Shown: in pieces, positions 57 through 17,680 of the stretch
Position numbering within the stretch: the stretch's first letter is position 1
How the letters are laid out: every line of letters starts with the position of its first letter
Origin: a virus
Lineage: Duplodnaviria > Caudoviricetes
Reading direction: 5' to 3' (one strand)
IMG/VR virus record: IMGVR_UViG_3300037247_001786
Location: 384,001 to 448,000 of that record
DNA: 64,000 nucleotides
Notes under the pieces: model-generated
Database searches by the model: none
What the model saw: only the letters and a program-made list of their open reading frames with translations
Told to the model about the DNA's origin: nothing
Position numbers and translations under genes: made by a program

Positions 57-638
57 ATGGACCTATTTATACAAAATATGGATAAGATAGAAAAGATAGC
101 TGAAAAGATGGTAAATTATTGGCATGGGAAATTTGAAGTCGAAGAATTGATAGATACTGCTTATATTAAGTATCGTACAGCTATCGAGAATAATCCCTCA
201 TTAGTGGATAGTGTTTTTTCTAATCTAACAACTTTTTTATGGCGTGTAAAAAATGATATGAAGGATTATATAAAAAAACAAACTGGGATAAGAACAAAAG
301 AAAAGAAAAAAATGCTTGCTAACACTATTACTCATTCTTTTCAACGTCCAGATGACGATAACGGCAATCACGGTTGCATATCTTTCTTTGAACCTCAAAG
401 TATTGACAAAGGTCAGGAAAGTGTGGACAATTGTGAACTTCTTAATGAAATTTTTAAAAAAGTAGAATTAACTGATAGAGAGTGGAAAGTTATACAGGGC
501 TATTTTTGGGAAGGAAAAACAACTAAAGAAGTGGGTATAGAACTTGGGTCTGCCGATAAAAATGCTTCTGGAACAACTTGTAATATAAAAAATAAGATAG
601 TAAAAAAACTTCAAAAACAAGCGTTATTATTGGTGTAA
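57..638 (+). CDS. RNA polymerase sigma-70 family factor (group 3/ECF-like)
   Basis: Region-2-like EELIDTAYIKY...FLWRVKNDMKDYIKK; region-4 HTH LTDREWKVIQGYFWEGKTTKEVGIELG. Confidence 0.75.
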   Translation: MDLFIQNMDKIEKIAEKMVNYWHGKFEVEELIDTAYIKYRTAIENNPSLVDSVFSNLTTFLWRVKNDMKDYIKKQTGIRTKEKKKMLANTITHSFQRPDDDNGNHGCISFFEPQSIDKGQESVDNCELLNEIFKKVELTDREWKVIQGYFWEGKTTKEVGIELGSADKNASGTTCNIKNKIVKKLQKQALLLV

Positions 639-640
639 AT

Positions 641-1204
641 ATGGATTTCTTTTTTGAACATTTAAAAGGCATACAACAGATGGCTCGTAAGATTTGCAGG
701 TCTTATCATGGCAAGTACGAGGTAGATGAATTGATAAATGTAGCCTGGATGGATTATCAAGTAATGATAGAAAAGTATCCTTTTTGGACAAGGAGTTACC
801 GTTATCCCGAATTAATTCTTTATAAAAGAGTCAGATATGATATGTTAAATTATATCAGATATGATCTAAAATTAAAGAAAAAAAAGATATTAGAGAAAAA
901 TGGTTCTCACGTTCCACTGTTTATTAGTTATAATGCAGAGGATAAAGATGGGGAAAAGTTATCTTCTTTCACAGGTTCGTATTCTGATAAAGGTTTTGAC
1001 AAAGTCGATAATCTTGAGTTATTAGAATATCTTAGAACTCGCATGGGATTAACTGATAGAGAGTGGAAGATACTTAAATATTATTTTTATAATGGGTACA
1101 CAGACAGATTAATTGCCGAAAAAATAAATATATCAAAATCAAGGGTATCGCAGTTAAGAAATCAAGCTCTCAAAAAATGTAAGGAACACTTAATAGGAGT
1201 ATAA
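641..1204 (+). CDS. RNA polymerase sigma-70 family factor (SigF/FliA-like region 4), paralogue of 57-638
   Basis: DELINVAWMDY...YKRVRYDMLNYIR; LTDREWKILKYYFYNGYTDRLIAEKINISKSRVSQLRNQALKK is a classic sigma-4 HTH. Confidence 0.85.
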   Translation: MDFFFEHLKGIQQMARKICRSYHGKYEVDELINVAWMDYQVMIEKYPFWTRSYRYPELILYKRVRYDMLNYIRYDLKLKKKKILEKNGSHVPLFISYNAEDKDGEKLSSFTGSYSDKGFDKVDNLELLEYLRTRMGLTDREWKILKYYFYNGYTDRLIAEKINISKSRVSQLRNQALKKCKEHLIGV

Positions 1205-1417
1205 GAAATGCAGATGAAGAAAGTAACATTAACTGAAGAATATGTTCAGGGTATTTTGCATCCTTACATACATTCGGATATGGGGGATGGGGACATCTTT
1301 GCTTTTACGAGAAAGATTCAAAATGATGCAATACGTCAGGAGACTAAATTGGAAAATCTGACAGAAATATATTTTATGTTAATAGAATATAGAGATAGTT
1401 TAAAGAAATAAATATAA

Positions 1418-1489
1418 GCTCTCATCGTCTAGTGGTCAGGATTGCTGGTTCTCAGCCAGTTGACGAGGGTTCGATCCCCTCTGAGAGTA
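1418..1489 (+). tRNA. tRNA-Glu (CTC)
   Basis: Acceptor GCTCTCA/TGAGAGT, anticodon arm GCTGG-ttCTCag-CCAGT, T arm GAGGG-TTCGATC-CCCTC; no encoded CCA. Confidence 0.93.
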
Positions 1490-1614
1490 TTTTGTACCAT
1501 TAATATCGATAACTTGTGGTATAAGAGACAACGCTACTTCCGGGTGACGGTAGTGAGACTAGTTACTAAATATAAGGTATCAGGTTGGGGTAAAAGCCCC
1601 AAGACATCCACCAA

Positions 1615-1689
1615 GCATCCGTAGTCTAGTCCGGATAGGCATTCGCCTTCTAAGCGAAATACACGCGGGTTCGAATCCTGCCGGGTGCG
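1615..1689 (+). tRNA. tRNA-Arg (TCT)
   Basis: Acceptor GCATCCG/CGGGTGC, anticodon arm TTCGC-ctTCTaa-GCGAA, T arm GCGGG-TTCGAAT-CCTGC. Confidence 0.93.
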
Positions 1690-1695
1690 TTTAAT

Positions 1696-1775
1696 GTCCC
1701 AGAAGCTTAATCTGGATAAGCACTGGTTTCCTAAACCAGAGTTAGAAAGTGTAGGTTCGAATCCTATCTGGGATA
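1696..1775 (+). tRNA. tRNA-Arg (CCT), extended variable region
   Basis: Acceptor GTCCCAG/CTGGGAT, D arm GCTT...AAGC, anticodon arm CTGGT-ttCCTaa-ACCAG, 11-nt variable region, T arm GTAGG-TTCGAAT-CCTAT. Confidence 0.88.
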
Positions 1776-1795
1776 TAAGGATATACTCATGATCT

Positions 1796-1869
1796 GTCCC
1801 CGTAGTCTAATTGGAGAGGCACTTCGCTACGAACGAAGATATATGCGAGTTCGAGTCTTGCCGGGGATG
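1796..1869 (+). tRNA. tRNA-Arg (ACG)
   Basis: Acceptor GTCCCCG/CGGGGAT, anticodon arm CTTCG-ctACGaa-CGAAG, T arm GCGAG-TTCGAGT-CTTGC. Confidence 0.92.
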
Positions 1870-1872
1870 TTA

Positions 1873-1903
1873 AAGAGAGAGGCACTATGTCTCTCTTTTT
1901 TTT
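1873..1903 (+). terminator. Intrinsic terminator after tRNA cluster
   Basis: Purine arm aagagagaggc, loop actat, arm gtctctctt, then T-run. Confidence 0.75.
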
Positions 1904-1950
1904 CGCGAAAAATAATTGCCAGAGTGTGAAAAAATAGGATTTATGATATT

Positions 1951-2229
1951 ATGAAAAAGATATTAAGTAAAGTAGAATTGAAATTTGGTAGCGACTCTAT
2001 CATAGATGGGAACCATCTATCTATAGATATCAACTTATTCGAAATTACATTAACTGACGATTCTATAGTATATAACGTTGGAATAAATTTTCTTAGTAGT
2101 CAAACTATTAAGAGTTTGTTAAAATTAGAAGATTATAGTTGTACAGATATGAAAGAAGCATTTAAGAGATTCCGACAACTACATACTTCTTTAAAAGTAC
2201 TATTCGAAAATATGGAGATAGAAAGGTAG
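1951..2229 (+). CDS. Hypothetical protein (cassette gene)
   Basis: ATG directly after element copy 1916. Confidence 0.55.
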   Translation: MKKILSKVELKFGSDSIIDGNHLSIDINLFEITLTDDSIVYNVGINFLSSQTIKSLLKLEDYSCTDMKEAFKRFRQLHTSLKVLFENMEIER

Positions 2230-2977
2230 AATAATGTATTTATGTAAAATATCAAAAAGAGAAGTATGTAGGAATGGTAATTGCAAGGACACGGTAGTAC
2301 ATGAGCTTGTGTCTTGTAGTAGCTCTCTTCTTCCAGGAAATGCAAAAAAGTGGGTTAAGAAACATTTCTCATCAGCATATAAGAACCATGTAATGAGTAC
2401 TTTCCATGCGGTTCCTGGATTTAAAGCATTGAATATATCTAACGATGATGGTAGTCCTCATAATACATATAATGGGAGAGCTACTATGTTTGATGAGTAT
2501 GGTCGTCCAGTATATATAATTGCTATTGATGTATATGCAGTTGAAGTAGTCAATTAATTTATAACGGGAAATATTATGAATGAACAAGATGATCTAGTAT
2601 TAGAAGAGATGTTAACATGAAAGTCTTTATTACAAGAGATGAAGATAGCGACGAAATATGGTTGTGGCTTAAGCCCCGCAAGGGTTCATTTAAACCAGTA
2701 ACTCTCGAAGGTTGTGATATGATCAATTTTCAACGAAGAGACAATATGAATGAAATAGATAAGTATTGTGGCTATACTAAATCTGATTTTAAAAAGAAAT
2801 TTGGAGTTCCTCTTATTAATAAGAAAACTTGCAAAAGTATCGACTTGCCAGATGATTTAGTTCTAGACAATAAATTAACATTAAGTCCTCTGATTTTTGA
2901 CTAATTTGCCAGAGTGTGATTTTTTTGATATTATGATATTGTTGAAACGAATATTATTATTATAAAAGGAATTAAGC

Positions 2978-4756
2978 ATGACAAGTCAAACAACGCAAAA
3001 ACGTCAACTCAAAATGGACCCTAACCTATTATTAGATGTTATAGGTCGGCAAGCTGGCACCCTTGATAAAGCTGTATTAGAGGGTGGGATGAACGGTATA
3101 GAGGCTATAAATGCAGTTATACAAGATAAGGGAAGTTGCGAAGATGAGGGTATCTACATTACCTTTAAAAAGGGTAGGAAAGATGTTCTTACTATACAAG
3201 ATTATGGTAAGGGTATAACTACTAAAAAAGAGATAGAAGAATTCTTTGAAACCTTTGGCACCCCTCACGCGGAAAACGAACATAAAATCTATGCTCAATT
3301 TAGAATGGGTAGAGGTCAAATGTTCAATTTCGGTCGTAATGTATGGCGTACAGGCACCTTCAAGTTAATCGTCGATATTATGCGTAATGGCTTGGAATGG
3401 GAATTAGAAGAAAACCTACCCTTTGTATCTGGTTGTCATATCGAGATAGAATTGTATGACAAGTATAAGAATAGCTGGCCCGCAAATACGGTCGATTGCC
3501 TCAAAGATGCAGTCAAGAAACAGATGGAATTTGTTTCCTCTCCTGTATACTTTAATGGGGAACAGATTAGTACCCCACCTAAAGATTTGACATGGGACGA
3601 AGAAGATGATTTCGCTTATTACAGTTTTGGCGTAGGGGATAGTCTAAAGATTTATAATCTTGGAGTCTATGTTAGAGATAACCACAGAACGAGTGGTATC
3701 ATCGTAAGTAAGCAACAGTTGAGAGTTAATTTTCCGCGTAATGACGTTATGGCTGATTGCGTAATATGGTATCATATCGAAAAAGTAGTAAAGAAAAATG
3801 TTGTTAATAGGTCGAAGAAAAAATATATCGCACTAACGAAACATGAACGTAGGGCGATACTGAAAGATATTAGAAATGGAATACAGGAGTATCAAGATGT
3901 AAAAACTTCTCGTATTTTGCAAACTGCCCAAAACAAATATATCAGTTTTAGTATGTTCTTAAAGAATAATCAGCCTTGGACTTTCGCTCATATAGGTAGT
4001 AGACAAGCCGATACCCTAATAGAGCAAGGTAGTCATGTTGTCTTTGCTAAAGAAATGATAGAGGCACTGAATTATTCTGGCGAAGAAAAAGATTTCTTTA
4101 GTTGGTTAATAAAGACCTTATTAGATGGCAATGAGAAATATGGAGAACAAAGCTGGCAACAGTATAATGATTATCCTCTCCAGTATGACTACAAAAAGAT
4201 ATTGGCAAAAGAAAAATTCTATGATAACTTCTGTCATGCTGTATCAAATATGTCAAGTAGTTGTATTACTCTCGCTCAAAACAAGCTAACAAAAGTAGAG
4301 AAAAGGGTTATACAGTCATTGACATACTATAGTTGTTGGGATGCAAGGGTTTTGCGTATGGGAGTATCTGACTCCGCTTCTGCTTGGACAGATGGACACT
4401 CTCATATAACTCTTGATAGAAAGTTTCTAAAGAGACTAAATCTAACGGTAGATAGCGATATTGTTCAACTGTTTACCGTATTAGTCCATGAATTAGCCCA
4501 CAACGACGATACCTCTAATACAGATATTCATGGAGAGGATTTCTATGAATCTTTTCACGCAATTTGTCTTAAAAACTGTTGGGGAAACCCTCTCAATAAT
4601 ATCTTGAAATTCAAGAAGTCTATGGATAGTTTGATGTCAGCAGAACGTAGAGATAAAAGGAAGAAACAAGAGGAAGATAATCTACAAAAGCAAGCTGAAA
4701 AGTTGGGCTTAACAAAAAAGACCAACATACACGATAAAGTCGCAGCCGTAGTATAA
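2978..4756 (+). CDS. GHKL (HSP90/MutL-like) ATPase with C-terminal HExxH zincin motif
   Basis: LEGGMNGIEA (Bergerat N-box-like), TIQDYGKGI (G1 box), QFRMGRGQ (G2-like); C-terminal VLVHELAH...HGEDFY. Confidence 0.75.
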   Translation: MTSQTTQKRQLKMDPNLLLDVIGRQAGTLDKAVLEGGMNGIEAINAVIQDKGSCEDEGIYITFKKGRKDVLTIQDYGKGITTKKEIEEFFETFGTPHAENEHKIYAQFRMGRGQMFNFGRNVWRTGTFKLIVDIMRNGLEWELEENLPFVSGCHIEIELYDKYKNSWPANTVDCLKDAVKKQMEFVSSPVYFNGEQISTPPKDLTWDEEDDFAYYSFGVGDSLKIYNLGVYVRDNHRTSGIIVSKQQLRVNFPRNDVMADCVIWYHIEKVVKKNVVNRSKKKYIALTKHERRAILKDIRNGIQEYQDVKTSRILQTAQNKYISFSMFLKNNQPWTFAHIGSRQADTLIEQGSHVVFAKEMIEALNYSGEEKDFFSWLIKTLLDGNEKYGEQSWQQYNDYPLQYDYKKILAKEKFYDNFCHAVSNMSSSCITLAQNKLTKVEKRVIQSLTYYSCWDARVLRMGVSDSASAWTDGHSHITLDRKFLKRLNLTVDSDIVQLFTVLVHELAHNDDTSNTDIHGEDFYESFHAICLKNCWGNPLNNILKFKKSMDSLMSAERRDKRKKQEEDNLQKQAEKLGLTKKTNIHDKVAAVV

Positions 4757-4767
4757 AAATTTTATAC

Positions 4768-4795
4768 TTGCAAGTGATTTATTATCTGTTATAAT
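4768..4795 (+). promoter_or_regulatory. Sigma70-like promoter (class II)
   Basis: TTGCAA-N16-TATAAT, with GTGATTT following the -35; sits directly upstream of element copy 4796. Confidence 0.55.
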
Positions 4796-4862
4796 TTGCC
4801 AGAGTGTAGAAAATCTAAATTTATAGTATTGTAAAATAAAGTTTAATTAAAAGGATATAGCC

Positions 4863-5165
4863 ATGTTTTCAATTTTAGCGTTTGTGCCATTTGTGCCAAC
4901 TCCATTAAGTTTTATATCGTTTCTCGTATTTGTTGCGGTAGTCATATTTTTTGTCTACCCGAAAATCAAAAACAGTAGAAAGTTAGATGACCTTACTAAA
5001 GATATTTCGTCAGATGGGTCACAAGACAAGAGTACTACTGATAGTATCATAACTGGTATCAGTAATGGAGTTGATAAGCTGAAACAGAGACAAAAGGATG
5101 TCGCCGAAACAATTAAAGACGCAAAGAAAGAGGGCGACAAGATTAAAGATGTCCTTAAAAAATAA
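4863..5165 (+). CDS. Small membrane-anchored protein
   Basis: Hydrophobic N-terminus (LSFISFLVFVAVVIFFVY), charged tail. Confidence 0.6.
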   Translation: MFSILAFVPFVPTPLSFISFLVFVAVVIFFVYPKIKNSRKLDDLTKDISSDGSQDKSTTDSIITGISNGVDKLKQRQKDVAETIKDAKKEGDKIKDVLKK

Positions 5166-5297
5166 TAACTATAACCGTAACTATAAATAAAAGGAGTAAT
5201 TGCCTATGAAGTAAAAAGTGGATTTATATTTTGTAGTATTGAAGTAAAATGTATGTAGTTTAAACAAATAAAAATTTTAAAGTAAAAGGAAAAAGTC

Positions 5298-6680
5298 ATG
5301 AACACTAAATTAACACTAACACTTATTGCAGTAGTTGTTATTATCGGTATTTTAGCATCGTTTTCAAGCGGTCTTGTCGGTAAGAACGAAGCTACCAACT
5401 GGCAGATCAAGCAGTCTATTGGCGGTAAAGTAACAATTCAGGATAAACCTGGGTATTATGTCAAGGCATTCGCTACTGTAACCACTTATCCTCGTTATGT
5501 CTCACAGCGTTGGAATGATGTGGTTGGCGATGGCGTCAATAATATCGAATCTATTCGCACCACTTTTAATGATGGCGGCACTGCTCAGATTTCGACTGAT
5601 ATTAGGTTCGCAACACCGAGTAACGAAGAAACTCGTAAAGTTTTCCATCAACAGTTTGGCGGAAATATCGAGAATGCTGTTATCGCTGTTAAGTCTCACT
5701 TGACAAACTGTATCAAAGCAAGTGGACCACTTATGTCGGCATCAGAGAATCAAGCGGCTCGTAAGGCTGAATTTACTCAGCTTGTTGAAAACCAGACAGC
5801 AGAAGGCTTGTATGGTATGGAACGTATCGAAAAGTATATCGAACTTCCTCAATCAGCCGATCAGATCGAAGCTGGCATACCACCTCGCACCGAAGCAGTT
5901 ACAGCAACAAGATTGATTTTTGACAACAACGGAATGCCAGTAGTTGCTAAAGTTTCTCCTTTGAAGACTTATGGTATCACAATTCTCCAGTTCTCAATTA
6001 CAAGTACCGTCTATGACGACGAGACTTTGGAACAGTTTGCTGCTAAGAAAGAATCTTTCCTCGCTGCCGAGAAGTCAAAGGCTGATAAGATTAAGTTTGC
6101 TCAAGCCGAAATGTCAACTGTTGCCGAGTATGCTCAAAAGATTGCCGTCGAAAAAGGTTTGGCTGATATGGAAAAGATGAAGCAGACTACTGACGCCGCG
6201 AGAGACAAAGAACTTGCCGAGATCGACGCTGCTAAAAAAGTAGCTGTTGCAGAATTTGCAAAGACCGAAGCCGAGACAGTTGCTAATATGGCATTGGCTG
6301 TTGCGGCTATCAAAAAAGAAGAGGCTTTAACTGTCGCTAATATGGGTCTTGAAGTAGCCACTATCGACGCTGACGCTGCGGAACAGAAAAAGATTGCTGT
6401 TATCGCCGAAGCCGAAGGTAAGGAAAAGGCTATTGAACTTTCTGGAGCAATTACCGAGAGAGAAGAAGTATTGGCAAGAATCCTCGCCGATAAGGATGTT
6501 CAAGTCGCATTGGCTTTGAAAGACATCAAGGCTCCATCTTTCGTTGTAACTGGCGGAAGCGGTAACGGCGGAGGTTTGCAAGGCACGATGGTTGGCATTG
6601 CTATTATGAAGGCTGCAGGAGTACTTCCAGCAAACTTTAGCATTGACAATCCGATGACATCTGTTCCAGTAGTAAAGTAA
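5298..6680 (+). CDS. SPFH / band-7 / flotillin-like membrane protein
   Basis: N-terminal TM helix, SPFH-like core (TFNDGGTAQIS...FSITSTVYD), long Ala/Glu/Lys coiled-coil flotillin-like tail. Confidence 0.8.
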   Translation: MNTKLTLTLIAVVVIIGILASFSSGLVGKNEATNWQIKQSIGGKVTIQDKPGYYVKAFATVTTYPRYVSQRWNDVVGDGVNNIESIRTTFNDGGTAQISTDIRFATPSNEETRKVFHQQFGGNIENAVIAVKSHLTNCIKASGPLMSASENQAARKAEFTQLVENQTAEGLYGMERIEKYIELPQSADQIEAGIPPRTEAVTATRLIFDNNGMPVVAKVSPLKTYGITILQFSITSTVYDDETLEQFAAKKESFLAAEKSKADKIKFAQAEMSTVAEYAQKIAVEKGLADMEKMKQTTDAARDKELAEIDAAKKVAVAEFAKTEAETVANMALAVAAIKKEEALTVANMGLEVATIDADAAEQKKIAVIAEAEGKEKAIELSGAITEREEVLARILADKDVQVALALKDIKAPSFVVTGGSGNGGGLQGTMVGIAIMKAAGVLPANFSIDNPMTSVPVVK

Positions 6681-6702
6681 TAATTATTACTTCATAGAAA
6701 AA

Positions 6703-6744
6703 GACCCCAATAGGTTATCCACTTTTCCTATTGGGGTTTTTCTT
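6703..6744 (+). terminator. Intrinsic terminator after SPFH gene
   Basis: GACCCCAATAGG...CCTATTGGGGTT stem followed by T-rich run. Confidence 0.8.
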
Positions 6745-6829
6745 TGTCTACAGGATTTGCCAGAGTGGTAAAAAATATAATTTATGGTATTATAAACGAT
6801 AACAAAATTATTTTTTGAGGATAGTTATT

Positions 6830-7654
6830 ATGAAAAAGCCACTTGGAATCATACTCTATAAGGGTAAATCTGTTATAGATGGTAAACTTATTGTAGTTGT
6901 TGCTACAGGTTTTGCCGGTAAATCAAGCAATGAGAAAACTGGAGATATGATTCAAACATGGATTTTAAGACCCGATGTACCTCCTATTATGGCAATCAAA
7001 ACAGGACATGATTTCTCTGTTTGTGGGGATTGTAAACACAAACATATCGGCTCTTGTTATGTCAACGTCGCTCACGGACCCCACAATGTTTTCTATGCCT
7101 ATCAAAACGATAGGTATGTACGGTTCGATATAGACAAGCATTCTAAACTGTTTGAAGGTCGATCAATTAGATTAGGCTCATACGGTGACCCCGCAGCAGT
7201 ACCCACTCATATATGGGAAACGGTTTGCGGTCTTACAATCGCACACACGGGTTACACGCACCAATGGAATACAAGGTTTGTAAAACCCGAATTAAAGAAT
7301 TTCTGTATGGCAAGTTGCGACAATGAAAAAGAGCAAGTAAAAGCCAAAAGTTTAGGTTGGCGTACTTTTAGAGTTAGAACAGATGTAGACCAGCCTTTAC
7401 TTGAAAACGAATTTGTATGTCCTGCAAGTATGGAATATGGACAGAAAACCTCTTGTATCAAATGCAAGGCTTGTATGGGTTTAGGAGCTAACACCAAAAA
7501 AGACCCTGTTATAGTTGTTCACGGATTAGATCATAAGATAAAGAAGTTCAACAAAGGCATGAAACTTATAGCATGGAAAGAAAAATATAGAAAAGAGTTT
7601 GATTATCCGCTTAAAAAGAAAAAAAAGCGGAAAAGAGTAATTGCCAGAGTGTAA
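6830..7654 (+). CDS. Cys-rich phage-type protein of unknown function
   Basis: SNEKTGDMIQTWIL, CGDC, IRLGSYGDPAAVP, HTGYTHQW, CPAS...C..C..C motifs; C-terminus (IARV*) is encoded by element copy 7641. Start set at the ATG after the leader. Confidence 0.65.
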   Translation: MKKPLGIILYKGKSVIDGKLIVVVATGFAGKSSNEKTGDMIQTWILRPDVPPIMAIKTGHDFSVCGDCKHKHIGSCYVNVAHGPHNVFYAYQNDRYVRFDIDKHSKLFEGRSIRLGSYGDPAAVPTHIWETVCGLTIAHTGYTHQWNTRFVKPELKNFCMASCDNEKEQVKAKSLGWRTFRVRTDVDQPLLENEFVCPASMEYGQKTSCIKCKACMGLGANTKKDPVIVVHGLDHKIKKFNKGMKLIAWKEKYRKEFDYPLKKKKKRKRVIARV

Positions 7655-7704
7655 AAAATATAAATTTATATAGTTGTTAATGATAATTTATAAGGAAAGA
7701 TATT

Positions 7705-8196
7705 ATGCATAGCTTTATTGGTATTATTACCTATGGACAGAACATAGGAGAAGCAAGAGACAAGGCAAAGAAACTATCAGACGCTATGATAGGTGAAGTA
7801 GCATACCCTTTTGACTATGGTGGGACTAGTGGCGAAACAATGTTGTTCTCTTCTCAAAAAGGAGTTAAACTTGTCGGTCAAGCTATGGAAGCGACAAAGA
7901 AACATTTCCTATATGCTATAAATATGGTGAGAGAACATCTTGAAAAATTCACAAATGAAGATATAGCCAAGAGTGAAAATATAGTATATGACGAAAAAGA
8001 TACTACATATAATACTGGTATGGCTAGACATTGGATGTTTAAAGCTGGACAGTATAAAGGAGGAGAAATCTGCTTATACGATAACGACGGAGAAGGTATT
8101 AGAACTCCAGAACATTTAGACAGAGTCTTGAAGCAATGGGATAAGCCGGTATCTGGAGAAAAGATATATGTCACTCCATTTAATATGCATTTCTAA
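7705..8196 (+). CDS. Hypothetical protein (cassette gene)
   Basis: SD + ATG after element 7641; stop 1 nt before element 8198. Confidence 0.6.
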   Translation: MHSFIGIITYGQNIGEARDKAKKLSDAMIGEVAYPFDYGGTSGETMLFSSQKGVKLVGQAMEATKKHFLYAINMVREHLEKFTNEDIAKSENIVYDEKDTTYNTGMARHWMFKAGQYKGGEICLYDNDGEGIRTPEHLDRVLKQWDKPVSGEKIYVTPFNMHF

Positions 8197-8612
8197 TTTG
8201 CCAGAGTGACAAAAATATAAACTTATAGAAGTGTTAATACTAACACTGAATAGGAGTTGTAAAATGCCATTGGGTAAAGTAATATATTTTCAGAAAAATC
8301 TTGATACGGAAGTAAAAGTCGCTATCATTATTAAAGAGGAATATGATCATGAGGGGGTATGGGGTCATATCGCTTGCGAACTTGATCATAGTCCAGATGA
8401 GGAAGAGATTAGAGTAGCAAGTGTTGACAGGAATGTTATTATTCCTTTTCCGAAAAATGAGGAAATAGATAAAAATCTAAAATACTATAAAGAAGCTAAA
8501 CATTTTCTTGATAGATTGGTGGATTTTGACACTATGTCAAAGGACGAGATAATAGCTGTATGCGATATGACAGCGATAATTGCAAGACAAGAACTTTAAT
8601 GGAGATAGAATT

Positions 8613-9002
8613 ATGAGTTATGAAACGAGTGCTAGTTACGCTGACACGGTAGAAATCGATTTTGTTAAGGCTCAATGTCCTGAAGAGTGGGAAAAATTTA
8701 ATCTTGCTTTGTTAGCTGGGGAAATTGATTTTGATGCTTTTTGTCAATGCACTTCTATTGAGGATGAATTAGATGCAGATGAGCCAGAAGCCAAAGCGAT
8801 TGATGAAGCATATGAAGCTCTTCAAGATGCTTTTAGGATAAAAGTGGCTCTTACTCTTAATATAGTCTATAACGAAAAAGACGACAGAGGTGATGAATTA
8901 GAGGGAGGCTCCTTTGCCGTCGATGGGGTTTGGGTTCTTTCCGAGGGTGGAAGAAATCATAAAGATAGTATTGAAAGACTATTTTGGACTAATGGCGGAT
9001 AA
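8613..9002 (+). CDS. Acidic hypothetical protein
   Basis: GGAG SD then ATG 8613; D/E-rich (IEDELDADEPEAKAIDEAYE). Confidence 0.6.
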   Translation: MSYETSASYADTVEIDFVKAQCPEEWEKFNLALLAGEIDFDAFCQCTSIEDELDADEPEAKAIDEAYEALQDAFRIKVALTLNIVYNEKDDRGDELEGGSFAVDGVWVLSEGGRNHKDSIERLFWTNGG

Positions 9003-9853
9003 TATGATATATCATATAAAACAATATGGTAGGATAACTGTTACTCATATAGATAGGGAGATGATCTCAGAAGAAGATATAAAAGAGATTACTCTTAAAC
9101 TAGTAAAAAAAGCTAAAGAAGCTATTAAAAAGAGTAAAATGGTTAGTGGTGCTTTTGATGTAGAAGTATGTCAAACTAACGGAGAAGTAGTTGATAGTTT
9201 TTTAAGCGGAACTTACTAATTTGCCAGAGTGGTAAAAAAAGAAAGTTATAGTAATATGAAAGCATACGATAAAAAAGAAAAGTTTCCCGAACATTGGAAG
9301 AGCGTAAGAATATTAGGAGAGATGTGTGTTGATATTGCTACTCATAGTATTTTAGGGGTAGAGTATAAATCCGATAAGAGGGCTGGTAGATATGGTTTAA
9401 GACTATCAGATAAAGATATTTTCGAGTTCTATAATCCTCATAATGACGGAGTTATGAGTCATGGGGGTACAAAGTTGGATGCTGTAATAGGAGCCGAATG
9501 TGTCTATCTAAACCACTTCATCTTTGAAAATGAAAACGAATTGTGGGCATGGGTAGCAGAGTGGGGGGGACTTACTCATTTGCAAGATATACTTGAATTA
9601 GAGGAAAAGAAAACCAAAAACAAAGAGATTCTATTCCATAATATATCCTATACTCTTAAAGATACAGATTTAGATATAGACTTTATGGAAGTAGAACAGA
9701 TTGAATATATGATAGGGCAAGGTTTCAGCGAGGGAGAACTGTCTATGACAGACCCAGATAATCCAGAAGAGACTTTTATGGGTTATTGGAAAATAGATAA
9801 CATTTGCCAGAGTTGTAAAAAAAGTATTTTATAGTAGTACAGGAGATTTTATT

Positions 9854-11164
9854 ATGGCTAATGTATTAGAACACAAGAAATTTATTTGCGTATGTTTTGG
9901 CGATACGAATAATAACAAGGTATGGCAATATACTTTATACGATGATGGTACCGCTCTAACAGAATGGGGGAGAGTCGGGAAAAAACTACAAAGTAAGATG
10001 ACAACCGAATCTAAAGCCCTTGCCAAAATGAGGGAAAAGACAAGAGTAAATAACAAACCAGATAAACTCTATACAGAAGTTATGGTAGCTGAGGGAGTAT
10101 CTTCGTCAAGCACTGCTGTTGTAGCGTCCTCTAATTTAAAATCTATTGCTAACAAGCAAATAGATATTAAAGACCCTACTTTGAAAGAGTTAGTAGAATT
10201 TCTTGTAAAAGAGAATATCCATAATATTATGGAAACGTCCAAAGGCTCTATCCAGTACGATACTGCATCTGCTCAATTCAAGACACCATTAGGCGTTATT
10301 CTACCTGATCAAGTTTCTGACGCGAGAGATTTATTAGACGATATGGCTGACTATGTAGTTACAGGAGATTTCAATAATAGGAAATTCGCCAGATTATTAA
10401 ATGAATATCTGCGTTTAATCCCACATGATATTGGTATGTCTAAAATCAGTCCGAAACTTATACTTCCAGATGATGACGCATTACAGACCGAGAATAACTT
10501 GTTAGATGGGCTTGACGTTTCTTTTAATGATATACAAACTGGAGCTACAAAAACTAAAACTACGAAAAAGAAAAAAGATAATACTCCTAAACTTTTCGAT
10601 GTTACTCTTGATATTGTTCGCGATAGGAAAGAGATTAGTCGTATAAAAAAGTATTTCAATGACACAAAGTTAAATATGCATGTAACGAGTGGGTATCGAG
10701 TTAAAAAGATATATGAAGTAAAGATAGGGGCAATGCACTCATCTTATGAAAAATCGGGTTTACCGATAGGTAATATTATGGAATTATGGCATGGCACTCG
10801 CTGTTCTAATTTACTTTCGATTCTCAAAAAAGGGCTAATAATACCTCCATCGCAGTCAAGCCATGTGACCGGACGGATGTTTGGTGCCGGACTTTATTTT
10901 TCTGACCAATCGACTAAGGCTCTGAATTATGCCACTAATTTTTGGAATTCTTCTGGTTCTTCAAAGCGTATTTTTATGTTCTTGTGTGACGTTGCTATGG
11001 GCAAATATCATGTTCCGTCTGGAGGTTGGGGTAGCGGTTATCCTAAAAGAGGTTTTGACTCTACTTTTGCCAAAGCAAATGTATCTTCGGTTAGGAATAA
11101 CGAAATGATAGTTTATAAGTTACCACAAGCCAATTTAAAATATCTTTTAGAATTTGAAGAATAA
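9854..11164 (+). CDS. PARP-like ADP-ribosyltransferase (WGR + PARP regulatory + catalytic domain)
   Basis: TEWGRVGK (WGR), helical middle domain (LLNEYLRLIPH...ENNLLDGL), catalytic LWHGT, FGAGLYFSDQSTKALNY, NNEMIVY (H-Y-E triad). Confidence 0.92.
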   Translation: MANVLEHKKFICVCFGDTNNNKVWQYTLYDDGTALTEWGRVGKKLQSKMTTESKALAKMREKTRVNNKPDKLYTEVMVAEGVSSSSTAVVASSNLKSIANKQIDIKDPTLKELVEFLVKENIHNIMETSKGSIQYDTASAQFKTPLGVILPDQVSDARDLLDDMADYVVTGDFNNRKFARLLNEYLRLIPHDIGMSKISPKLILPDDDALQTENNLLDGLDVSFNDIQTGATKTKTTKKKKDNTPKLFDVTLDIVRDRKEISRIKKYFNDTKLNMHVTSGYRVKKIYEVKIGAMHSSYEKSGLPIGNIMELWHGTRCSNLLSILKKGLIIPPSQSSHVTGRMFGAGLYFSDQSTKALNYATNFWNSSGSSKRIFMFLCDVAMGKYHVPSGGWGSGYPKRGFDSTFAKANVSSVRNNEMIVYKLPQANLKYLLEFEE

Positions 11165-11234
11165 AAAAGGTCTATTCCCGAAACTCCATAATTATATAAT
11201 ATTAAGTTAATATTAAATTATATGGAGTTTTAAA

Positions 11235-11876
11235 ATGGCAAAGAAGAGAAAAAAATATGGACCAAAAAACGATTTAACAGGGCAAAGATTCGGACATCTT
11301 GAAGTTTTAAGAATGGCTCATAAGCCAGACGATAACAGAAAAGAGTATAAAGCTGTTTGTAAGTGCCACAATTGTGGAAAAACAGAACATTGGGTTTTTC
11401 CTTATCATCTAAGAAAAAAATTGACGACCAGTTGTGGCTGTTTAATGGGCAATAGGAAAAAAGGAAAAGATAGAAGCTGCTACAGCGGTTATGGAGAGAT
11501 TACGGGCTCGGTATGGGGAAAAATAAAACAAGGAGCACGAAGAAGAGAAAAAGAGTTTACAATAACCATTCGAGAAGGATGGGAATTGTTTATCAAACAA
11601 GATAGAAAATGTTCTTTAACACTACTTCCAATCGAAATGGGAACAGGTAGAAACTTGGGAACTGCCTCTTTAGACAGAATAGACAGTTCAAAAGGCTACA
11701 TAATAGATAACATACAATGGGTACATAGGAATGTAAATATTATCAAACATACCTGTTCTCAAGAGTATTTCCTCACTCTTTGTCGTAAAATAGTTAATAA
11801 TGAAGCATTAAAGAATGTGCCTAATTTATCGGACGAAGAGATATTAGCTAATCCTATATTTGCTAGAGGTTTTTGA
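11235..11876 (+). CDS. HNH (His-Me finger) homing endonuclease-like protein
   Basis: DLTGQRFGHLEVL...CKCHNCGK...TSCGC N-terminus; SLDRIDSSKGYIIDNIQWVHRNVNIIK core. Confidence 0.85.
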   Translation: MAKKRKKYGPKNDLTGQRFGHLEVLRMAHKPDDNRKEYKAVCKCHNCGKTEHWVFPYHLRKKLTTSCGCLMGNRKKGKDRSCYSGYGEITGSVWGKIKQGARRREKEFTITIREGWELFIKQDRKCSLTLLPIEMGTGRNLGTASLDRIDSSKGYIIDNIQWVHRNVNIIKHTCSQEYFLTLCRKIVNNEALKNVPNLSDEEILANPIFARGF

Positions 11877-12756
11877 ATTTGCCAGAGTGTGGAAAAACAT
11901 AATTTATATGGGTGTTAATAACTTATTTATATAGGAGTAAAAAATGGAACTTGAAAAATTTGGAAAAGATTTTAGGGAGTTTTTTTTAAAACTGCACCAA
12001 GCTGTCGATATAATTGAAGATGGATTTTTCCCTCATTGCGATAAAAAAGAGTTTGATTTTGATTGTTACAGTAATTCAAATCCTATAATAGAGATTACAT
12101 TCACTACATACTCTCCTGGAGAGGGTTATAGTGACGATGATTATTATCTTTCCGTTCCTGATACTATCATCACAGAAAAAGGTTTAAATGAGTTTCTCGA
12201 TGAGTTAAGACGTAAAAAAGCAGAAAGAATAGAAGAAGAACAGAAGCAGCAAAGACAAATAGAAGAGAAAGAGAAAAAAGTACAAGAGGAAAAAGAACGT
12301 AAAGAGCTTAAAAGATTACAAAATAAATATGAGGTTCTAGGGAGTTAATAACTTAATTTTTGCGGAGTAAAAAATGAAAGATGTATTTACTGTATATAAA
12401 GACGGAACAAAATTAATGACTTCAAGAGTAAGAAATTTTGAAGATGAATACAATATGATTGGGAGATTTTTAAAATGGTTAGGAGATAAATAATGAACTC
12501 ATTAAATATAAATTTAGAAGAGGGTGACAAGGTCGTACTAGAGGGAGATTGTCACGAATCCATAAGAACCGTTACTGTAACTGGAGGCTTTGGCATGAGT
12601 AAGAATACTGCTGGCACTGGTTTATTCGTCGAGTTGCCAAACGGGACTACTGGCAAAGCTAATAGTATGGAGATCGAGCGAAGACTTCCATTATTGCCAG
12701 AGTGTGAAAAAAAGTAATTTATAAGGTTGTTAATAATATTTTGTAAGGGAAAGATT

Positions 12757-13278
12757 ATGGGTCAATACTATAAAGTTGTAAATACCGAACTTATGCAGTG
12801 GTACCATCCAGATTGGCTCAAACTTATGGAGCACTCATGGTTAGGTAACGAATGCGTGGGTAAGATAATGCGGCTCTTGTCGCCTGGCGGAGATTGGTAT
12901 AAGGCTCCTATCGTTTGGTGCGGCGATTATTATAGCGAATATGGCGAAATCCCATATTATGATTTGGTAAAAAGTGCTGATAGAGTCCGCCCCGAAAAGA
13001 CTATGACACGGGACGAACAACTTCAAGCTATTTTAGTTAATCATACTAAATTGGAATATACTACTTACCAGAATCTTCCAAAAAACAAAGATGGTTGGGT
13101 AATCAACCCATTACCTCTTTTAACTGCTTGCGGTAACAATAGGGGCGGCGGAGATTATTACGATAGTCACCCCGATTTTGATAAGGTCGGTATTTGGGCT
13201 AATGATCGACTGTCTGTCGAGACAGAGATACCTTATGGGTATTGGCACTTGAAGGTCAATTTTATAGAAATAAGATAA
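12757..13278 (+). CDS. Hypothetical phage-type protein
   Basis: MGQYYKVVN...LKLMEHSW...IVWCGDY pattern; cassette after element 12694. Confidence 0.6.
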   Translation: MGQYYKVVNTELMQWYHPDWLKLMEHSWLGNECVGKIMRLLSPGGDWYKAPIVWCGDYYSEYGEIPYYDLVKSADRVRPEKTMTRDEQLQAILVNHTKLEYTTYQNLPKNKDGWVINPLPLLTACGNNRGGGDYYDSHPDFDKVGIWANDRLSVETEIPYGYWHLKVNFIEIR

Positions 13279-13358
13279 ATTGCCAGAGTGGTAAAAAATA
13301 GAATTTATGTAGTTGTAAGTAATAACTAAAACATTTTTTATTAAACAGGAGAAAGACA

Positions 13359-14015
13359 ATGGATTCTAACAATCCAAATAGTGTAGCCATCGTTGGTACA
13401 CCGGACATGGGGGTAGCCGTTAAAGTCACGGATACTCTGAAAGATAAGACTATCGACCTTATCATAATTATGACAGGAAAAGAGTCTCTTTTCACTGCTT
13501 ATGACCTAACGCAGCGATTGAGAGTGGAAAATGTCGGTATGAATGTTCCCCATGTAGAGATAAGGGATATGGTTCATCAAGAGTTTAACGATACTTTCTG
13601 CGATGAGTACGAAAGAACTTTGACAGAGTTGCTTACTGGCGATAATTCTTTTGTCTATCACCCCGAGAATATCGCTGCAACCGATTATCATTTGGCAGTA
13701 AAGCCAGCAGTTGACGATACGGTTGACGACGGAGTCGGTTTTGGTCTGACAGACAGTAATAGGCTCAATATCCCACTGTCCATGTTGAACGATATGGAAC
13801 TAAAGAAAAGCGATAAGGTTCATATTGAAACAGAGAATGGGGTAATGTCCCTCACAACCGTCCCAGCGACGCCAGATAATGAGTTACAGGTCAATGCCGA
13901 TGGTCGGCTACGTCTTAACTCTACCACGCTTACAAGGGCATTTGGTAGCCTTAGTAAGAAGTACAACATTGAGGTATCTTCGGATAAAACAGCTATCACT
14001 GTTCGTCCGATATAA
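13359..14015 (+). CDS. Hypothetical protein with C-terminal AbrB/SpoVT-like repeats
   Basis: TDSNRLNIPLSMLNDMELKKSDKV and VNADGRLRLNSTTL resemble swapped-hairpin AbrB motifs. Confidence 0.45.
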   Translation: MDSNNPNSVAIVGTPDMGVAVKVTDTLKDKTIDLIIIMTGKESLFTAYDLTQRLRVENVGMNVPHVEIRDMVHQEFNDTFCDEYERTLTELLTGDNSFVYHPENIAATDYHLAVKPAVDDTVDDGVGFGLTDSNRLNIPLSMLNDMELKKSDKVHIETENGVMSLTTVPATPDNELQVNADGRLRLNSTTLTRAFGSLSKKYNIEVSSDKTAITVRPI

Positions 14016-14042
14016 AGAACTATCAGCACTTCCTCACAATTA

Positions 14043-14078
14043 GAGAGGGGTAACTACGGTTACTCTTCTCTTTTTTTT
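14043..14078 (+). terminator. Intrinsic terminator with UACG loop
   Basis: GAGAGGGGTAAC-TACG-GTTACTCTTCTC + T-run, abutting element 14077. Confidence 0.8.
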
Positions 14079-14794
14079 GCCAGAGTGTATAAAAATCACT
14101 TTTATAGTAGTATGAAAGGAATACTATTATGCGAAAAAAAATAACAATAAATGATTATGAGTTTGAGTTAGTCTATTCAGTAGACGAACCTAACAAAATC
14201 GTTTCCTCTACCTTTAAACTCCGAAATGCTGGACCTCCTACCCAAGAGTTTAGTATGTCTAAAGAAGAATATAGAATAGGGCAAAAAATTCAAGCAGATA
14301 TTTTCGATGGAGATTGGGATTGGCTTATCGCAAAAACGACAAAGACTATATCTTTAGATATATGTGGTATAACTATTGAGTTAGTTGATGTAGAATGGAT
14401 AGGAGATACTCGTCTCCGCTATACCGATGGTAGTATCAGATATGGTGGAGGTTCTATAACTGATAATCTCAAAGACGTATGCGAGGCTTGCGGTGACGTT
14501 CGTTGCGACTTGCTTTGTCCTGACGCTTTGGAGAAAGCAAGCGATAGGGATATAGATATTCAATGTAGTAATAATGAAGAATTAGAGAGTAGTAGAAACC
14601 ACAACTATGCTTGCGATGGGGTACTATCTATGGTTTTGGGTCATGCTGTCGCTGGACTGGATATCGAATCAGCTGCTTATAGAGAGGGGCTTGACGCTGC
14701 AATAGAGGGAATTGCCAATAATATCTAATTTGCCAGAGTGATTATTTTTAAAGGTTATACAAGTGTTAATGTTAATTTTTGCGGAGTAAATACT

Positions 14795-15193
14795 ATGGGT
14801 TATTGTATTGAGTTAAGAGAAGAAAACTTTAAAGTCACCGTTGCTAAAAGTTTAGAGGCTTTTCCTATAGTCATGAAATCTATTATTAACGAGAGAAACA
14901 CAAGTACAATGAGTTTCTCTTGGGTAGATGATGAAGATATTGAAAAAGCTAAATCCTTAACTGACCTTATGACCTCTTTCCGTTGGGAACCTGATATTGA
15001 CTCGGAAGGAAATATTATTAGTATTGATTTTTGTGGGGAGAAATTAGGGGATGATAAGATATTATTCGATATAATTGCTCCTTTTGTAGAAGATGACAGT
15101 TATATAGAAATGAGTGGGGAAGATGGTTCGATATGGAGATGGATTTTTAAAGATGGAGAATGTACTGAAAAAGATGCAACTATTGTCTTTTAA
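14795..15193 (+). CDS. Hypothetical phage-type protein
   Basis: MGYCIEL...FCGEKLGDD...APFVEDDSYIEMSGEDGSIWRW; GGAG SD. Confidence 0.6.
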   Translation: MGYCIELREENFKVTVAKSLEAFPIVMKSIINERNTSTMSFSWVDDEDIEKAKSLTDLMTSFRWEPDIDSEGNIISIDFCGEKLGDDKILFDIIAPFVEDDSYIEMSGEDGSIWRWIFKDGECTEKDATIVF

Positions 15194-15512
15194 TAATTTG
15201 CCAGAGTGATTATTTTTAAAGGTTATATGATTATGGAATTAAAAGAATTAAAAAATGAAACTATATGTTCTGATTGTGGGGCTGTAATAACCTCTGAATC
15301 AAGGAGCAATTTTCACACTAATGGTCACTGGAACGAATATCGAGAGTTTAAGTGCGGTAGAAAAATCCATTTTAGTCCTAACTTTATGAAGATTATCGTT
15401 GAGGTAGAATGTCCTAAAAACCCAACACAGAAACGTAAAATCGCGAAACAAAAAAGACTTGTAAAAGCTATCACTGAAATGGTAAACAAGTCAAGAGTTA
15501 CTAAAGAGTATA

Positions 15513-16206
15513 AAGAAAGACTCTTACGAGATATAAAATGGTGGTAAAATTTTTAATAAAATCAAATGTTTTTTATCAAGGACACGGTTCTAGTTCTTGT
15601 GGAACTTGCGAAGTAGAGTCAGAGCATAATAAAGAGTTATTAACTCTTTTTTTTCAGGCTCTTAAATCTGCTAAAATGATAGAAGACTGGGTGACTATTT
15701 CTCAGATATGGTTATCGCAGGGTAAAGTTAATTTTGTATCTAAAACGAGTTTACAAGAAAATGGAGTTATCGCTTACTATCATATTTGCCAGAGTGATAA
15801 AAATATAAACTTATAGAATTGTTAATTGAAACTTATTGGAGTTTAAGACGATGGGAACAAGAAAAAAAAGAAATAAGGATATTTGGGATACCTCTAATTC
15901 GGATTGTCATGTTCCCTATACTGACGAAGACATAGAATTAATTCTTCATCAATTACCTATTCCTAGTAATTGTGAATTACTGGGAAAAGCTTTAAAAAGG
16001 TCATCAGGAGCCATCCGACAAGTTTTTGAAAAAGCTTATATGCCTCATTCGGAAGCAAAAAATCTTACTGTTGGTAAAAATAGAGTTGAGAGTTCATATA
16101 ATATACAGATACAAAAAATATCTAAAAAGCTGAGGCTTATTAGAGGGTATAACGTTTTTAAATACCAGGGCAAGAAAGACTCTTACGAGATATAAAATGG
16201 TGGTAA
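15513..16206 (+). repeat. 35-bp perfect direct repeat pair (15513-15547, 16172-16206)
   Basis: aagaaagactcttacgagatataaaatggtggtaa occurs twice. Confidence 0.9.
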
Positions 16207-17188
16207 TGAATTAGGTAATATCAATTTTAATTAGGTAAAGGAATTAGGTAATGTCCAATTCAGCTTATATAGAAACATTCAAAAAGACCAGTTTATGCTC
16301 TGGAGAAACTCATTTCATAATTGACGTACAAGACAATCATGGTTCGGTTTCTCTCGTCACTCCAGAAAAAGACATATCAGAAGAAGATATGGAACTTCTT
16401 CAATATGTCAGAAAACAAGTTGAGAATAGAGACGAACACGGTTCAGATTGTGATATTATATTTGATATATTTGAATATATTGATAGCGGCGAAATAGGGA
16501 TTAACATAAACAATACCTATTATGACTGGGACGATATAAAAGAGTTTATGACTGGGGAAGAAGTAGAAATTTCTGAAATAGATAGAATCAATCCTTTCTC
16601 GTTATTTTTTATTGGTGATACCATTTATACCAACGAGAATTATGACCTTAAAAAGGTGGAAAAAGCCGTAGGTATATCTAATGATATAATGCAAATCCTC
16701 AATAAATTGGCAAAAGATATTCTCGAAGTCGCCACATCGGTTCAACACCTATTAGTGTACGCTGCTAAAAAGATAGAAGCATTTGGCAACGAGGGGGTAG
16801 GAGTTGGAGACACCGCCACAGATGAATTGATAGCCGAATACTTGGAGAACAAGTTAAAAGGAAAATTCTCTAAGAAAGATAGGTCGGAGATAGGGCAAGA
16901 CTTCTATTATATGTATCATAGGTAATTTGCCAGAGTGAAGAAAAATAAGGTTTATAGTATTATGAACGCACAATTAGCGAATTTGTTTAGTTATATTAAG
17001 AACCTGACTGTTGTTGTTTTTTGGATAGATTCAACAGTTAAAGGAGATATATATCATCGTTTATCCGAAGTTAGAGGAGAAGATGATGAACTGAAAGCAT
17101 TTTTTGACGATAATACAGATAGGTATGTTGACTTGTATAGTGTTGATTTTAATGATATAAGAGTTTATCAGAAAGTAGATTGGTTAAT

Positions 17189-17680
17189 ATGAAAAAAGGT
17201 ACACTAACAACAGTATTTGGCAATGTAACTAAACCTCAATTTAGCAATATGAGCGAAGTCGCTATTATCCCTCATTGTTGCAACACTCTCGGAGTTATGG
17301 GGGCTGGCGTTGCACTCGCACTCAAAAACAAATGGCCCGAAGTATATGAAACATATAAAAGACATCTTATGGGTCTCGGAAATGCTTCTTTTGTCGTTAC
17401 AGAAGAACTTGACGAAAATGTAAGAGTTATGGTTGCCAATATGATAGGTCAAGATGGCACCGTCTCTGCTGACAATCCTAAACCTGTCAAGTATTGGGCT
17501 TTAGCCTCTGCAATGAAAATAGTCTTGGCAGAGTGTCAAGCATTCCCTAATTCGGTTATACATACTCCTAAATTCGGTTCGGATTTGGCTGGAGGGGACT
17601 GGAATTTCATCTTGGAATTGATAAGAGAAATCTGGCTCGAAAATGGTATTGATGTTATTGTCTATGAATTTAGAGGGTAA
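17189..17680 (+). CDS. Macro domain protein (ADP-ribose processing, Poa1p/TARG1-like)
   Basis: IIPHCCNTLGVMGAGVALALKNKWPEVY...VANMIGQ...PKFGSDLAGGDW. Confidence 0.9.
   Translation: MKKGTLTTVFGNVTKPQFSNMSEVAIIPHCCNTLGVMGAGVALALKNKWPEVYETYKRHLMGLGNASFVVTEELDENVRVMVANMIGQDGTVSADNPKPVKYWALASAMKIVLAECQAFPNSVIHTPKFGSDLAGGDWNFILELIREIWLENGIDVIVYEFRG

Follow-up and report, generated by a model that had tools for sequence, protein, structure and literature searches.

Among the closest described relatives of the system considered here are two bacterial poly(ADP-ribose) polymerases (PARPs), HaPARP of Herpetosiphon aurantiacus (A9B244) and CdPARP of C. difficile CD160 (T3DQ72), together with the phage PARPs already annotated in sequence records. 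By their published descriptions, both bacterial proteins combine a WGR domain, a helical regulatory domain (HD, PARP_reg) and an ADP-ribosyltransferase (ART) catalytic domain (PARP) in ~400–450 residues, with an H-Y-E catalytic triad. HaPARP requires DNA and makes poly(ADP-ribose) (PAR), and CdPARP makes PAR as well (PMC5966428, PMC8120803); these two are the only bacterial PARPs found active in vitro, and reviews call the function and targets of the group “unknown” (PMC8120803). WGR-to-HD allostery has been described for PARP1–3 (bioRxiv 10.64898/2026.10.17.759577). Here we describe a PARP gene at positions 9854..11164 of a 64,000-nucleotide stretch of phage DNA (the window, bases 384001–448000 of the IMG/VR virus record IMGVR_UViG_3300037247_001786), which encodes a compact WGR-HD-ART protein with an intact H-Y-E triad. 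From its sequence, structure models and analogy with characterized enzymes, we consider it probable that the gene encodes an active DNA-damage-type ADP-ribosyltransferase in minimal form, expressed from its own unit and working with a predicted DNA-binding partner.

Phage PARPs have been cited as viral PARPs before (PMC7824862, PMC4245714): Perina et al. 2014 listed those of Aeromonas phage Aeh1 and Cellulophaga phi4:1, and Iyer et al. 2021 discussed PARPs of jumbo phages (PMC7824862). Several cultured-phage records are already annotated as PARP, XacN1 BBA65562.1 and FBKp34 gp111 with all three domains. Three-domain phage PARPs are thus already annotated and discussed in print, and the PARP itself is ordinary as a sequence find; what we add is its linkage to a partner gene, the size of the family in huge phages and the regulon in which the gene is embedded. 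Phage T4 likewise encodes NAD+-dependent ADP-ribosyltransferases, Alt, ModA and ModB, and uses them on host proteins, but these belong to the R-S-E (cholera-toxin-like) clade, lack a WGR domain and an HD, make no polymer and have no sequence match to the window PARP. A first-pass annotation made from the letters of the window by themselves had set the enzyme apart from Alt and Mod, and its place in the H-Y-E PARP clade bears this out.

Domain Architecture and Fold of the Phage PARP

The PARP gene (P0001, 9854..11164, plus strand) opens with an ATG, 8 nt downstream of a Shine-Dalgarno sequence, AGGAG, read from the sequence at 9841..9845, and encodes 436 residues. The WGR domain (9863..10081, plus strand) spans residues ~4–76, with NNNK at 19–22 and WGR at 38–40; it is followed by the HD (10133..10522, plus strand, residues ~94–223) and the ART domain (10601..11158, plus strand, residues ~250–435). 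The Pfam PARP catalytic model (PF00644) matches at E 2e-29 (103 bits, cut-off 26.7) and PARP_reg (PF02877) at E 1.4e-9 (38.6 bits, cut-off 26.8). On its own, the Pfam WGR model reaches E 7e-4 and 20.1 bits, slightly below its cut-off of 22, and the WGR region used as a single-sequence query matched nothing in the PDB. Because of this sub-threshold score we applied a second test, in which a profile built from the first 100 residues of 40 family members was compared with WGR structures; it matched those of PARP3 (2.4e-11), PARP2 (1e-7) and PARP1 (0.02), aligned the motifs NNNK(F/Y)(W/Y) and (W/Y)GRVG with them, and thereby identified the region as a WGR domain. PHROG 23333, labeled “polymerase,” covers the protein from end to end (5.7e-51). 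Beyond PARP, PARP_reg and WGR, no further Pfam domain was found in the protein except a weak, sub-threshold ART-PolyVal match, and no PADLOC or NCBIfam model matched.

In phmmer searches of the PDB, catalytic fragments of human PARP1 rank at the top (4.5e-27), and PARP2 WGR-CAT constructs align over residues 19–383. The alignment pairs WHGT (residues 312–315) with PARP1 WHGS (H862), GLYF (346–349) with GIYF (Y896) and NEMIVY (416–421) with NEYIVY (E988), and so assigns the catalytic triad to H313 (codon 10790–10792), Y348 (10895–10897) and E417 (11102–11104), all on the plus strand. D218 of the HD aligns with PARP1 D766, and the WGR motif itself lies within EWGRVG (37–42).

Modeling with AlphaFold2 on 40 homologs (mean predicted local distance difference test score, pLDDT, 76.6) gave a β-sheet and a helix in the WGR region and HD helices at 108–128, 151–170, 176–188 and 207–223. 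Predicted disorder is confined to the loop 334–340 and the linkers 79–93 and 226–243, the latter a Lys-rich stretch between the HD and the ART domain. The best Foldseek matches in the PDB (E 3e-25) are break-bound PARP1 WGR-HD-ART structures (4dqy_C, 8g0h_D; template modeling (TM) score 0.63–0.66), accompanied by PARP2 on DNA; among Swiss-Prot models, residues 2–435 superimpose on PARP1 543–1006 (TM 0.68), PARP2 116–576 and PARP3 60–531. Pfam, the family WGR profile and the structural comparison therefore agree on the WGR-regulatory-catalytic architecture that the first-pass annotation had proposed, the motifs it had named (WGR, HGT, GLYF and NEMIVY) are all in place, and its proposed checks by profile and structure prediction returned the ART fold. 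We conclude that 9854..11164 encodes a confirmed compact three-domain PARP with an intact triad. Judged by sequence and model, the PARP signature, H-Y-E triad, HD and WGR domain are those of ARTD clade 1, the DNA-dependent PARPs.

The same annotation had called the enzyme PARP1-like, which is apt for the WGR-HD-ART core but overstated for the protein as a whole. Identity to human PARP1–3 is ~22–24%, the superposition extends over the whole length, and equivalents of H862/Y896/E988, K903, Y907 and D766 are kept. The WGR domain, however, begins at residue ~4, with no zinc fingers, BRCT domain or N-terminal tail before it, and the loop preceding the E988 equivalent is short. The layout is shared with the bacterial PARPs and, their N-terminal tails aside, with PARP2 and PARP3.

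Conserved Residues and the Loop Preceding the Catalytic Glutamate

We aligned 94 full-length phage and bacterial relatives. Invariant positions in the ART domain are H313, G314, N319, G346, Y348, K355 (PARP1 K903), Y359 (PARP1 Y907), N415 and E417, and those in the WGR region are K22, G39, R40, K62 and Y73; D218 of the HD is likewise invariant. Across the family, W, Y, F or N stands at the first position of the WGR motif; a variable first residue, often Y or F, has been reported for bacterial PARPs (PMC5966428). The PARP1 Y986 and Y889 equivalents are Asn and Arg, and that of S904 is Ala in the window protein and Ser or Ala in its relatives. The S904 exchange, and the fact that the literature gave no experimental activity for phage members, would fit a homolog that is vestigial or has lost catalysis and is retained solely to bind DNA or ADP-ribose. 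We regard this as very improbable, since none of the 94 sequences departs from the catalytic and NAD-contact residues by which active PARPs are defined, and since Ser and Ala alternate freely at the S904 position.

The segment preceding the catalytic Glu (384–408) measures ~23–24 residues in every family member, versus ~51 in PARP1, and is thus ~27 residues shorter. Together with the changes at Y986 and S904, the short loop suggests that chain elongation or branching may differ from that of PARP1 and that a PARP3-like mono-transferase is possible. PARP3 illustrates that an enzyme with an intact triad need not make polymer. In phmmer alignments, tankyrase and PARP4 pass through this segment without a break, so the short loop by itself does not distinguish mono- from poly-ADP-ribosylation.

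Distribution and Phylogeny of the Family

Among cultured phages, tblastn found a match in 16 of 50,697 records, of which seven span the full length at 32–35% identity: Xanthomonas phages XacN1 and Xoo-sp13, Klebsiella phages FBKp34, 05F01 and KP13-16, and Stenotrophomonas phages CM1 and RAS14. The annotated members of this set (XacN1, Xoo-sp13, FBKp34 gp111, CM1/RAS14; PHROG 23333) have the same three domains but form a separate sub-lineage from the window PARP, which falls in a clade of metagenomic huge phages. Metagenomes contain more than 120 clusters (90% identity) at 52–78% identity to the query, all of ~435 residues and some on contigs of 150–394 kb; an exhaustive search yielded 378 clusters at 50% identity (E<1e-30). 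Scans at the DNA level recovered 40 loci from IMG/VR, frequently on contigs of 150–540 kb, and 57 bacterial loci, some on megabase-size contigs and mainly from Armatimonadota, Acidobacteriota and Pleurocapsales-type Cyanobacteria. The view that such enzymes are rare in phages thus holds for cultured isolates but not for metagenomic huge phages. The nearest bacterial relatives, Pleurocapsales among them, are ~40% identical to the window PARP, and the CdPARP study places Pleurocapsales in its clade 2.4 (PMC5966428).

In an unrooted maximum-likelihood tree of the 94 proteins, the window PARP groups with those of loci L006 (351-kb contig) and L009 (298 kb), with a Shimodaira–Hasegawa-like approximate likelihood ratio (SH-aLRT) support of 98. 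Phage and bacterial sequences interleave, and supported branches force at least five changes of label; as the tree is unrooted, it gives neither a donor nor a direction of transfer. On these sequences, the family is long-lived, diverse, constant in length and large in metagenomic huge phages, and the compact PARP is a stable, widespread huge-phage gene that is exchanged with bacteria and, in the window, is embedded in a phage-specific regulon. Knowing what such PARPs do would also bear on the idea that the eukaryotic enzymes arose from conflict systems of prokaryotes or viruses. As a separate observation, an IMG/VR “viral” contig (L038) and a Pyrinomonadaceae metagenome-assembled genome (L092) encode identical PARP proteins, which points either to a prophage or integrated element or to the misclassification of one record.

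A Predicted DNA-Binding Protein Encoded Downstream of the PARP

To survey the neighborhood, we clustered all open reading frames (ORFs) around the 97 loci and removed antisense and high-GC alternate-frame artefacts; one 39-locus “neighbor cluster” was discarded as antisense shadow ORFs within the PARP gene itself. The single non-trivial recurrent neighbor is a protein of ~200–230 residues encoded directly 3′ of the PARP. In the window this partner is a 218-residue protein (13359..14015, plus strand) with a box of its own (13282–13308; see below), predicted to consist of an N-terminal winged helix and a C-terminal tandem AbrB/SpoVT/MraZ-like domain. Its AlphaFold2 model (pLDDT 84.6) displays a helix-helix-helix-hairpin domain followed by a duplicated β-β-α-β-β domain. 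Foldseek matches it to PadR, Fur and MraZ in the PDB with probabilities of ~1.0 but E values of only 0.03–0.1, and to MarR/PadR and SpoVT-AbrB entries among AFDB clusters at 7e-5 to 2e-3. The Pfam AbrB-like and MazE models reach 3e-4 with one family member each, and none of the Pfam, PHROG, NCBIfam and PADLOC families matched the window copy.

Iterated hidden Markov models (HMMs) of the two halves of the partner were run against the 40 phage and 50 bacterial loci with enough flanking sequence. The N-terminal domain is encoded downstream and on the same strand in 23 of the 40 phage loci and 8 of the 50 bacterial loci (31/90), usually less than 1 kb from the PARP and never upstream or antisense, and the linkage extends to PARPs of only 28% identity. 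The C-terminal domain accompanies it in most phages but in few bacteria. An independent, widespread phage lineage (protein P0270, 86 collection blocks) has the order DUF3841 - PARP - 97-residue ORF - partner - Macro. Within the loci L110–L114 (contigs of 18–104 kb), where the last gene of this order is MacroD-like, an RlaP nucleotidyltransferase lies a few kilobases further downstream.

The close relative L116 (72% PARP identity) carries the PARP, two tiny ORFs and, after ~450 nt, the partner; it lacks the HNH endonuclease gene and three small ORFs found in the window, which indicates that the 2.2-kb spacer between PARP and partner in the window is an insertion. Other conserved PARP neighbors, in L023-type phages and in cyanobacteria, were examined as divergent partners and rejected (hhalign probability <1%). 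A search with a partner-derived pattern returned seven loci, all on PARP-bearing contigs, a result that is circular in that the pattern came from those very sequences. Prediction of a PARP-partner complex scored 0.00 in two runs, which speaks neither for nor against binding.

On this basis we tentatively raise the possibility that PARP and partner form a two-component DNA-directed ADP-ribosylation system, distributed over huge phages and several bacterial phyla and not described before. In such a system the partner would direct the PARP to particular DNA, or act as a dedicated substrate or co-factor in the manner of histones and HPF1 for PARP1/2, and DNA ends capped with ADP-ribose during infection could be among the products. 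The gene arrangement also sets the window PARP apart from HaPARP and CdPARP: the enzyme is phage-encoded, and its companion is a winged-helix/AbrB protein rather than PARG (DUF2263), which the phage genome lacks. A dedicated, predicted DNA-binding protein so often beside the PARP could offer a lead on what PARPs do outside eukaryotes, and if the two-component interpretation is true, it would give a first handle on the targets of prokaryotic and viral PARPs.

A tight same-strand gene pair that is common to phages and bacteria, with at least five host switches in the tree, also brings to mind a toxin-antitoxin-like or exclusion module, acting in superinfection exclusion or abortive infection. 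The PARP would then be a growth-arresting toxin that consumes NAD+ or ADP-ribosylates, and the AbrB/MazE-like winged-helix protein its neutralizer and autoregulator. The AbrB/MazE/SpoVT fold of the partner C-terminal domain is typical of antitoxins, and ART toxins are known in pairs with macrodomain or DNA-binding antitoxins, as in DarTG and ParST (PMC8120803). We nevertheless find such a module improbable: neither protein matches a PADLOC defense model, the AbrB domain is lacking in most bacterial partners, 59 of the 90 loci have no partner at all, in the window each of the two genes heads a box unit of its own, with 2.2 kb between them, and the WGR domain and HD already hold the enzyme off without an antitoxin.

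The PARP Gene Heads Its Own Unit in a Box-Rich Block

This part of the phage genome carries a recurrent promoter-like box, GCCAGAGT-N15-TTAT. With one mismatch allowed, the window contains 64 copies (0.27 expected by chance) between 1918 and 43535, 63 of them on the plus strand; counted as exact copies genome-wide, 68 of 69 plus-strand boxes fall within ~360–440 kb, in one block of ~65 kb. The box precedes almost every small gene of the block and typically ends 5–45 nt ahead of the ORF start. The copy belonging to the PARP (9806..9832, plus strand) extends into the stop codon of the preceding ORF and ends 22 nt before the ATG, which itself lies only 19 nt past that ORF. The next box downstream is at 11881, with none between 9832 and 11881. 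The PARP gene therefore heads a box-type unit of its own, one of ~65 small box-headed units in the block, as the first-pass annotation had supposed in assigning it a separate cassette. A generic scan for sigma-70 promoters and terminators around the PARP gene gave chance-level results only, and the box is probably a phage-specific promoter class.

Between PARP and partner, and inside the PARP unit, lies a 213-residue HNH endonuclease ORF (11235..11876, plus strand; PHROG 3322/374/1035, E 4.6e-24 to 7.5e-17). It has no box of its own and is missing from L116; it is probably a homing-endonuclease insertion into the unit. Two tandem ORFs with sigma-70 region 4 (window 57–638 and 641–1204; Pfam 4e-6 and 5e-12) border the box-rich block on its upstream side.

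Macrodomains, Erasers and NAD+ Supply

A macrodomain protein of 166 residues is encoded at 17180..17680 (plus strand; nearest box 16929–16955). It belongs to the TARG1/ALC1/SCO6735/DarG branch, with best PDB matches to SCO6735 (5e3b, E 1.2e-18) and to 2afc and 2fg1 (~5e-17). The Pfam Macro model scores 20.8 bits against a cut-off of 22, and the macro fold and signature are present. DarG models match at 4.7e-9 and 3.7e-10, well short of the equivalog level (39.6 bits, cut-off 250), and the resemblance to ALC1 and DarG macrodomains is only weak. From its sequence, the protein is a candidate ADP-ribose eraser or reader. In five of 41 phage loci (L006, L009, L030 and L040 among the carriers) a homolog is encoded less than 8 kb from the PARP, and a distinct, MacroD-like macrodomain is near the PARP in one more lineage. 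The idea that a macrodomain is an obligate PARP eraser was rejected as a general one, given its occurrence in 6/41 phage loci and in two macro subfamilies.

Elsewhere in the genome we found an ARH/DraG-type glycohydrolase (C1:294692-295510, 4e-79) between a DNA methylase and a dCMP-deaminase-like gene, a NADAR protein (C1:219817-220254, 1.6e-46), a NAPRTase (C1:45138-45815, 2e-64) adjoining a GIY-YIG endonuclease, an NMNAT-like nucleotidyltransferase (C1:8783-9286, 3e-27), an NAD-dependent DNA ligase (LigA; C1:25500-26117, 4e-26) and a second macrodomain (C1:48241-48579). A toolkit for NAD+ and ADP-ribose is thus dispersed over the genome. The second macrodomain adjoins a third sigma-like gene, with regions 2–4 (C1:47262-48104).

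These genes bear on a reading of the PARP as a host-shutoff or NAD+-drain device independent of DNA damage, functionally like T4 Alt, ModA and ModB. According to a proposal of Iyer et al. 2021, phage PARPs behave as the phage ARTs do but add chains (PMC7824862), and the block around the gene consists of small genes of takeover type that share a promoter-like box. Deliberate draining fits poorly with a phage that invests in NAD+ supply (NAPRTase, NMNAT-like protein) and whose LigA needs NAD+, and the intact, conserved WGR domain and HD argue for regulated, DNA-dependent activity; we consider this reading quite improbable.

The eraser complement also bears on the nature of the product. The enzyme might be a PARP3-like mono-ADP-ribosyltransferase and/or a DNA-end modifier that, once activated at a break, would mark 5′- or 3′-phosphorylated termini rather than make protein-linked PAR. 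Such termini might belong to the phage genome, to nicks or to host DNA undergoing degradation, and a TARG1-type macrodomain or ARH could remove the mark. PARP1–3 do modify phosphorylated DNA ends in vitro, and TARG1, MacroD2 and ARH3 reverse the modification (PMC8385414). The phage pairs a TARG1/DarG-branch macrodomain with an ARH, no PARG was found, and its genome is linear with terminal repeats; within the enzyme, the acceptor-side loop is short family-wide, Y986 is replaced by Asn and PARP3 is the best WGR profile match. Tankyrases have a short loop too and still make PAR, which leaves loop length indecisive, and both tested bacterial PARPs make PAR. We judge mono-transfer or DNA-end marking to be unlikely, though worth consideration.

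Proposed Mechanism

Our preferred interpretation remains that of an active, DNA-responsive ADP-ribosyltransferase with a predicted DNA-binding partner. By homology, the WGR domain would bind DNA nicks or breaks, and binding would loosen the HD, which otherwise blocks the NAD+ site; the ART domain would then attach short or long chains of ADP-ribose, drawn from NAD+, to itself and to proteins close by. The winged-helix/AbrB-like protein 13359..14015 would most likely work with the PARP as a targeting subunit, substrate or regulator. The phage macrodomains, ARH and NADAR could reverse the reaction, and the NAD+ salvage genes could sustain it. Candidate purposes are the control of DNA transactions during infection and the modification of host nucleoid or transcription proteins. 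We infer activation by DNA breaks from the conservation of the WGR domain and HD and from the analogy with HaPARP; the type of product, the targets and physical contact with the partner are likewise proposed by analogy.

Several observations weigh against this interpretation. The partner is lacking in 59/90 loci, the genes 3′ of the XacN1 and FBKp34 PARPs do not belong to its family, and the related huge phage L115 has partner and macrodomain with no PARP within 6 kb. A macrodomain is near the PARP in only the 6 phage loci counted above, and the DarG-like affinity of 17180..17680 suggests that it may serve another purpose, for instance as an anti-DarT factor. The genome yielded no PARG with PF05028 or PF10021, a weak negative given that the PF05028 control matched in no genome. 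Relative to PARP1, the pre-Glu loop is short throughout the family and Y986 and S904 are replaced by Asn and Ala. Lastly, our literature search returned no functional study (activity, expression or targets) of any phage PARP.

The Phage Genome and Further Features of the Window

The source record, from an uncultivated phage, is 460,978 bp long, with direct terminal repeats and a completeness rating of 100%. The window has 34% GC and small ORFs that are nearly all co-directional, with a tRNA cluster, Glu(CTC), Arg(TCT), Arg(CCT) and Arg(ACG), at 1418–1870, and the ORFs neighboring the PARP match PHROG families. The Pfam Terminase_6N, Terminase_6C and HK97 Phage_capsid models matched nothing in the 461-kb genome. 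We accept the phage assignment, made earlier from the window sequence, on the strength of the IMG/VR terminal repeats and completeness, the PHROG matches and the tRNAs, with the small co-directional genes in keeping. Megablast of window positions 5000–16000 against phage records gave no match.

L115, an ENA contig of 254,630 bp, carries in its first part (1–12624) homologs of the window genes at 2978, 5298, 12727, 13359, 14129 and 17180 in the same order, and the segment corresponding to 6815–12348, PARP included, is absent within the 12.6 kb read. At the start of that segment, a Cys-rich ORF of 279 residues (window 6815–7654) matches the C-terminal half of PHROG 2554, a family of unknown function, at 2.8e-77; it is kept just upstream of the PARP in L006, L008, L009 and L116.

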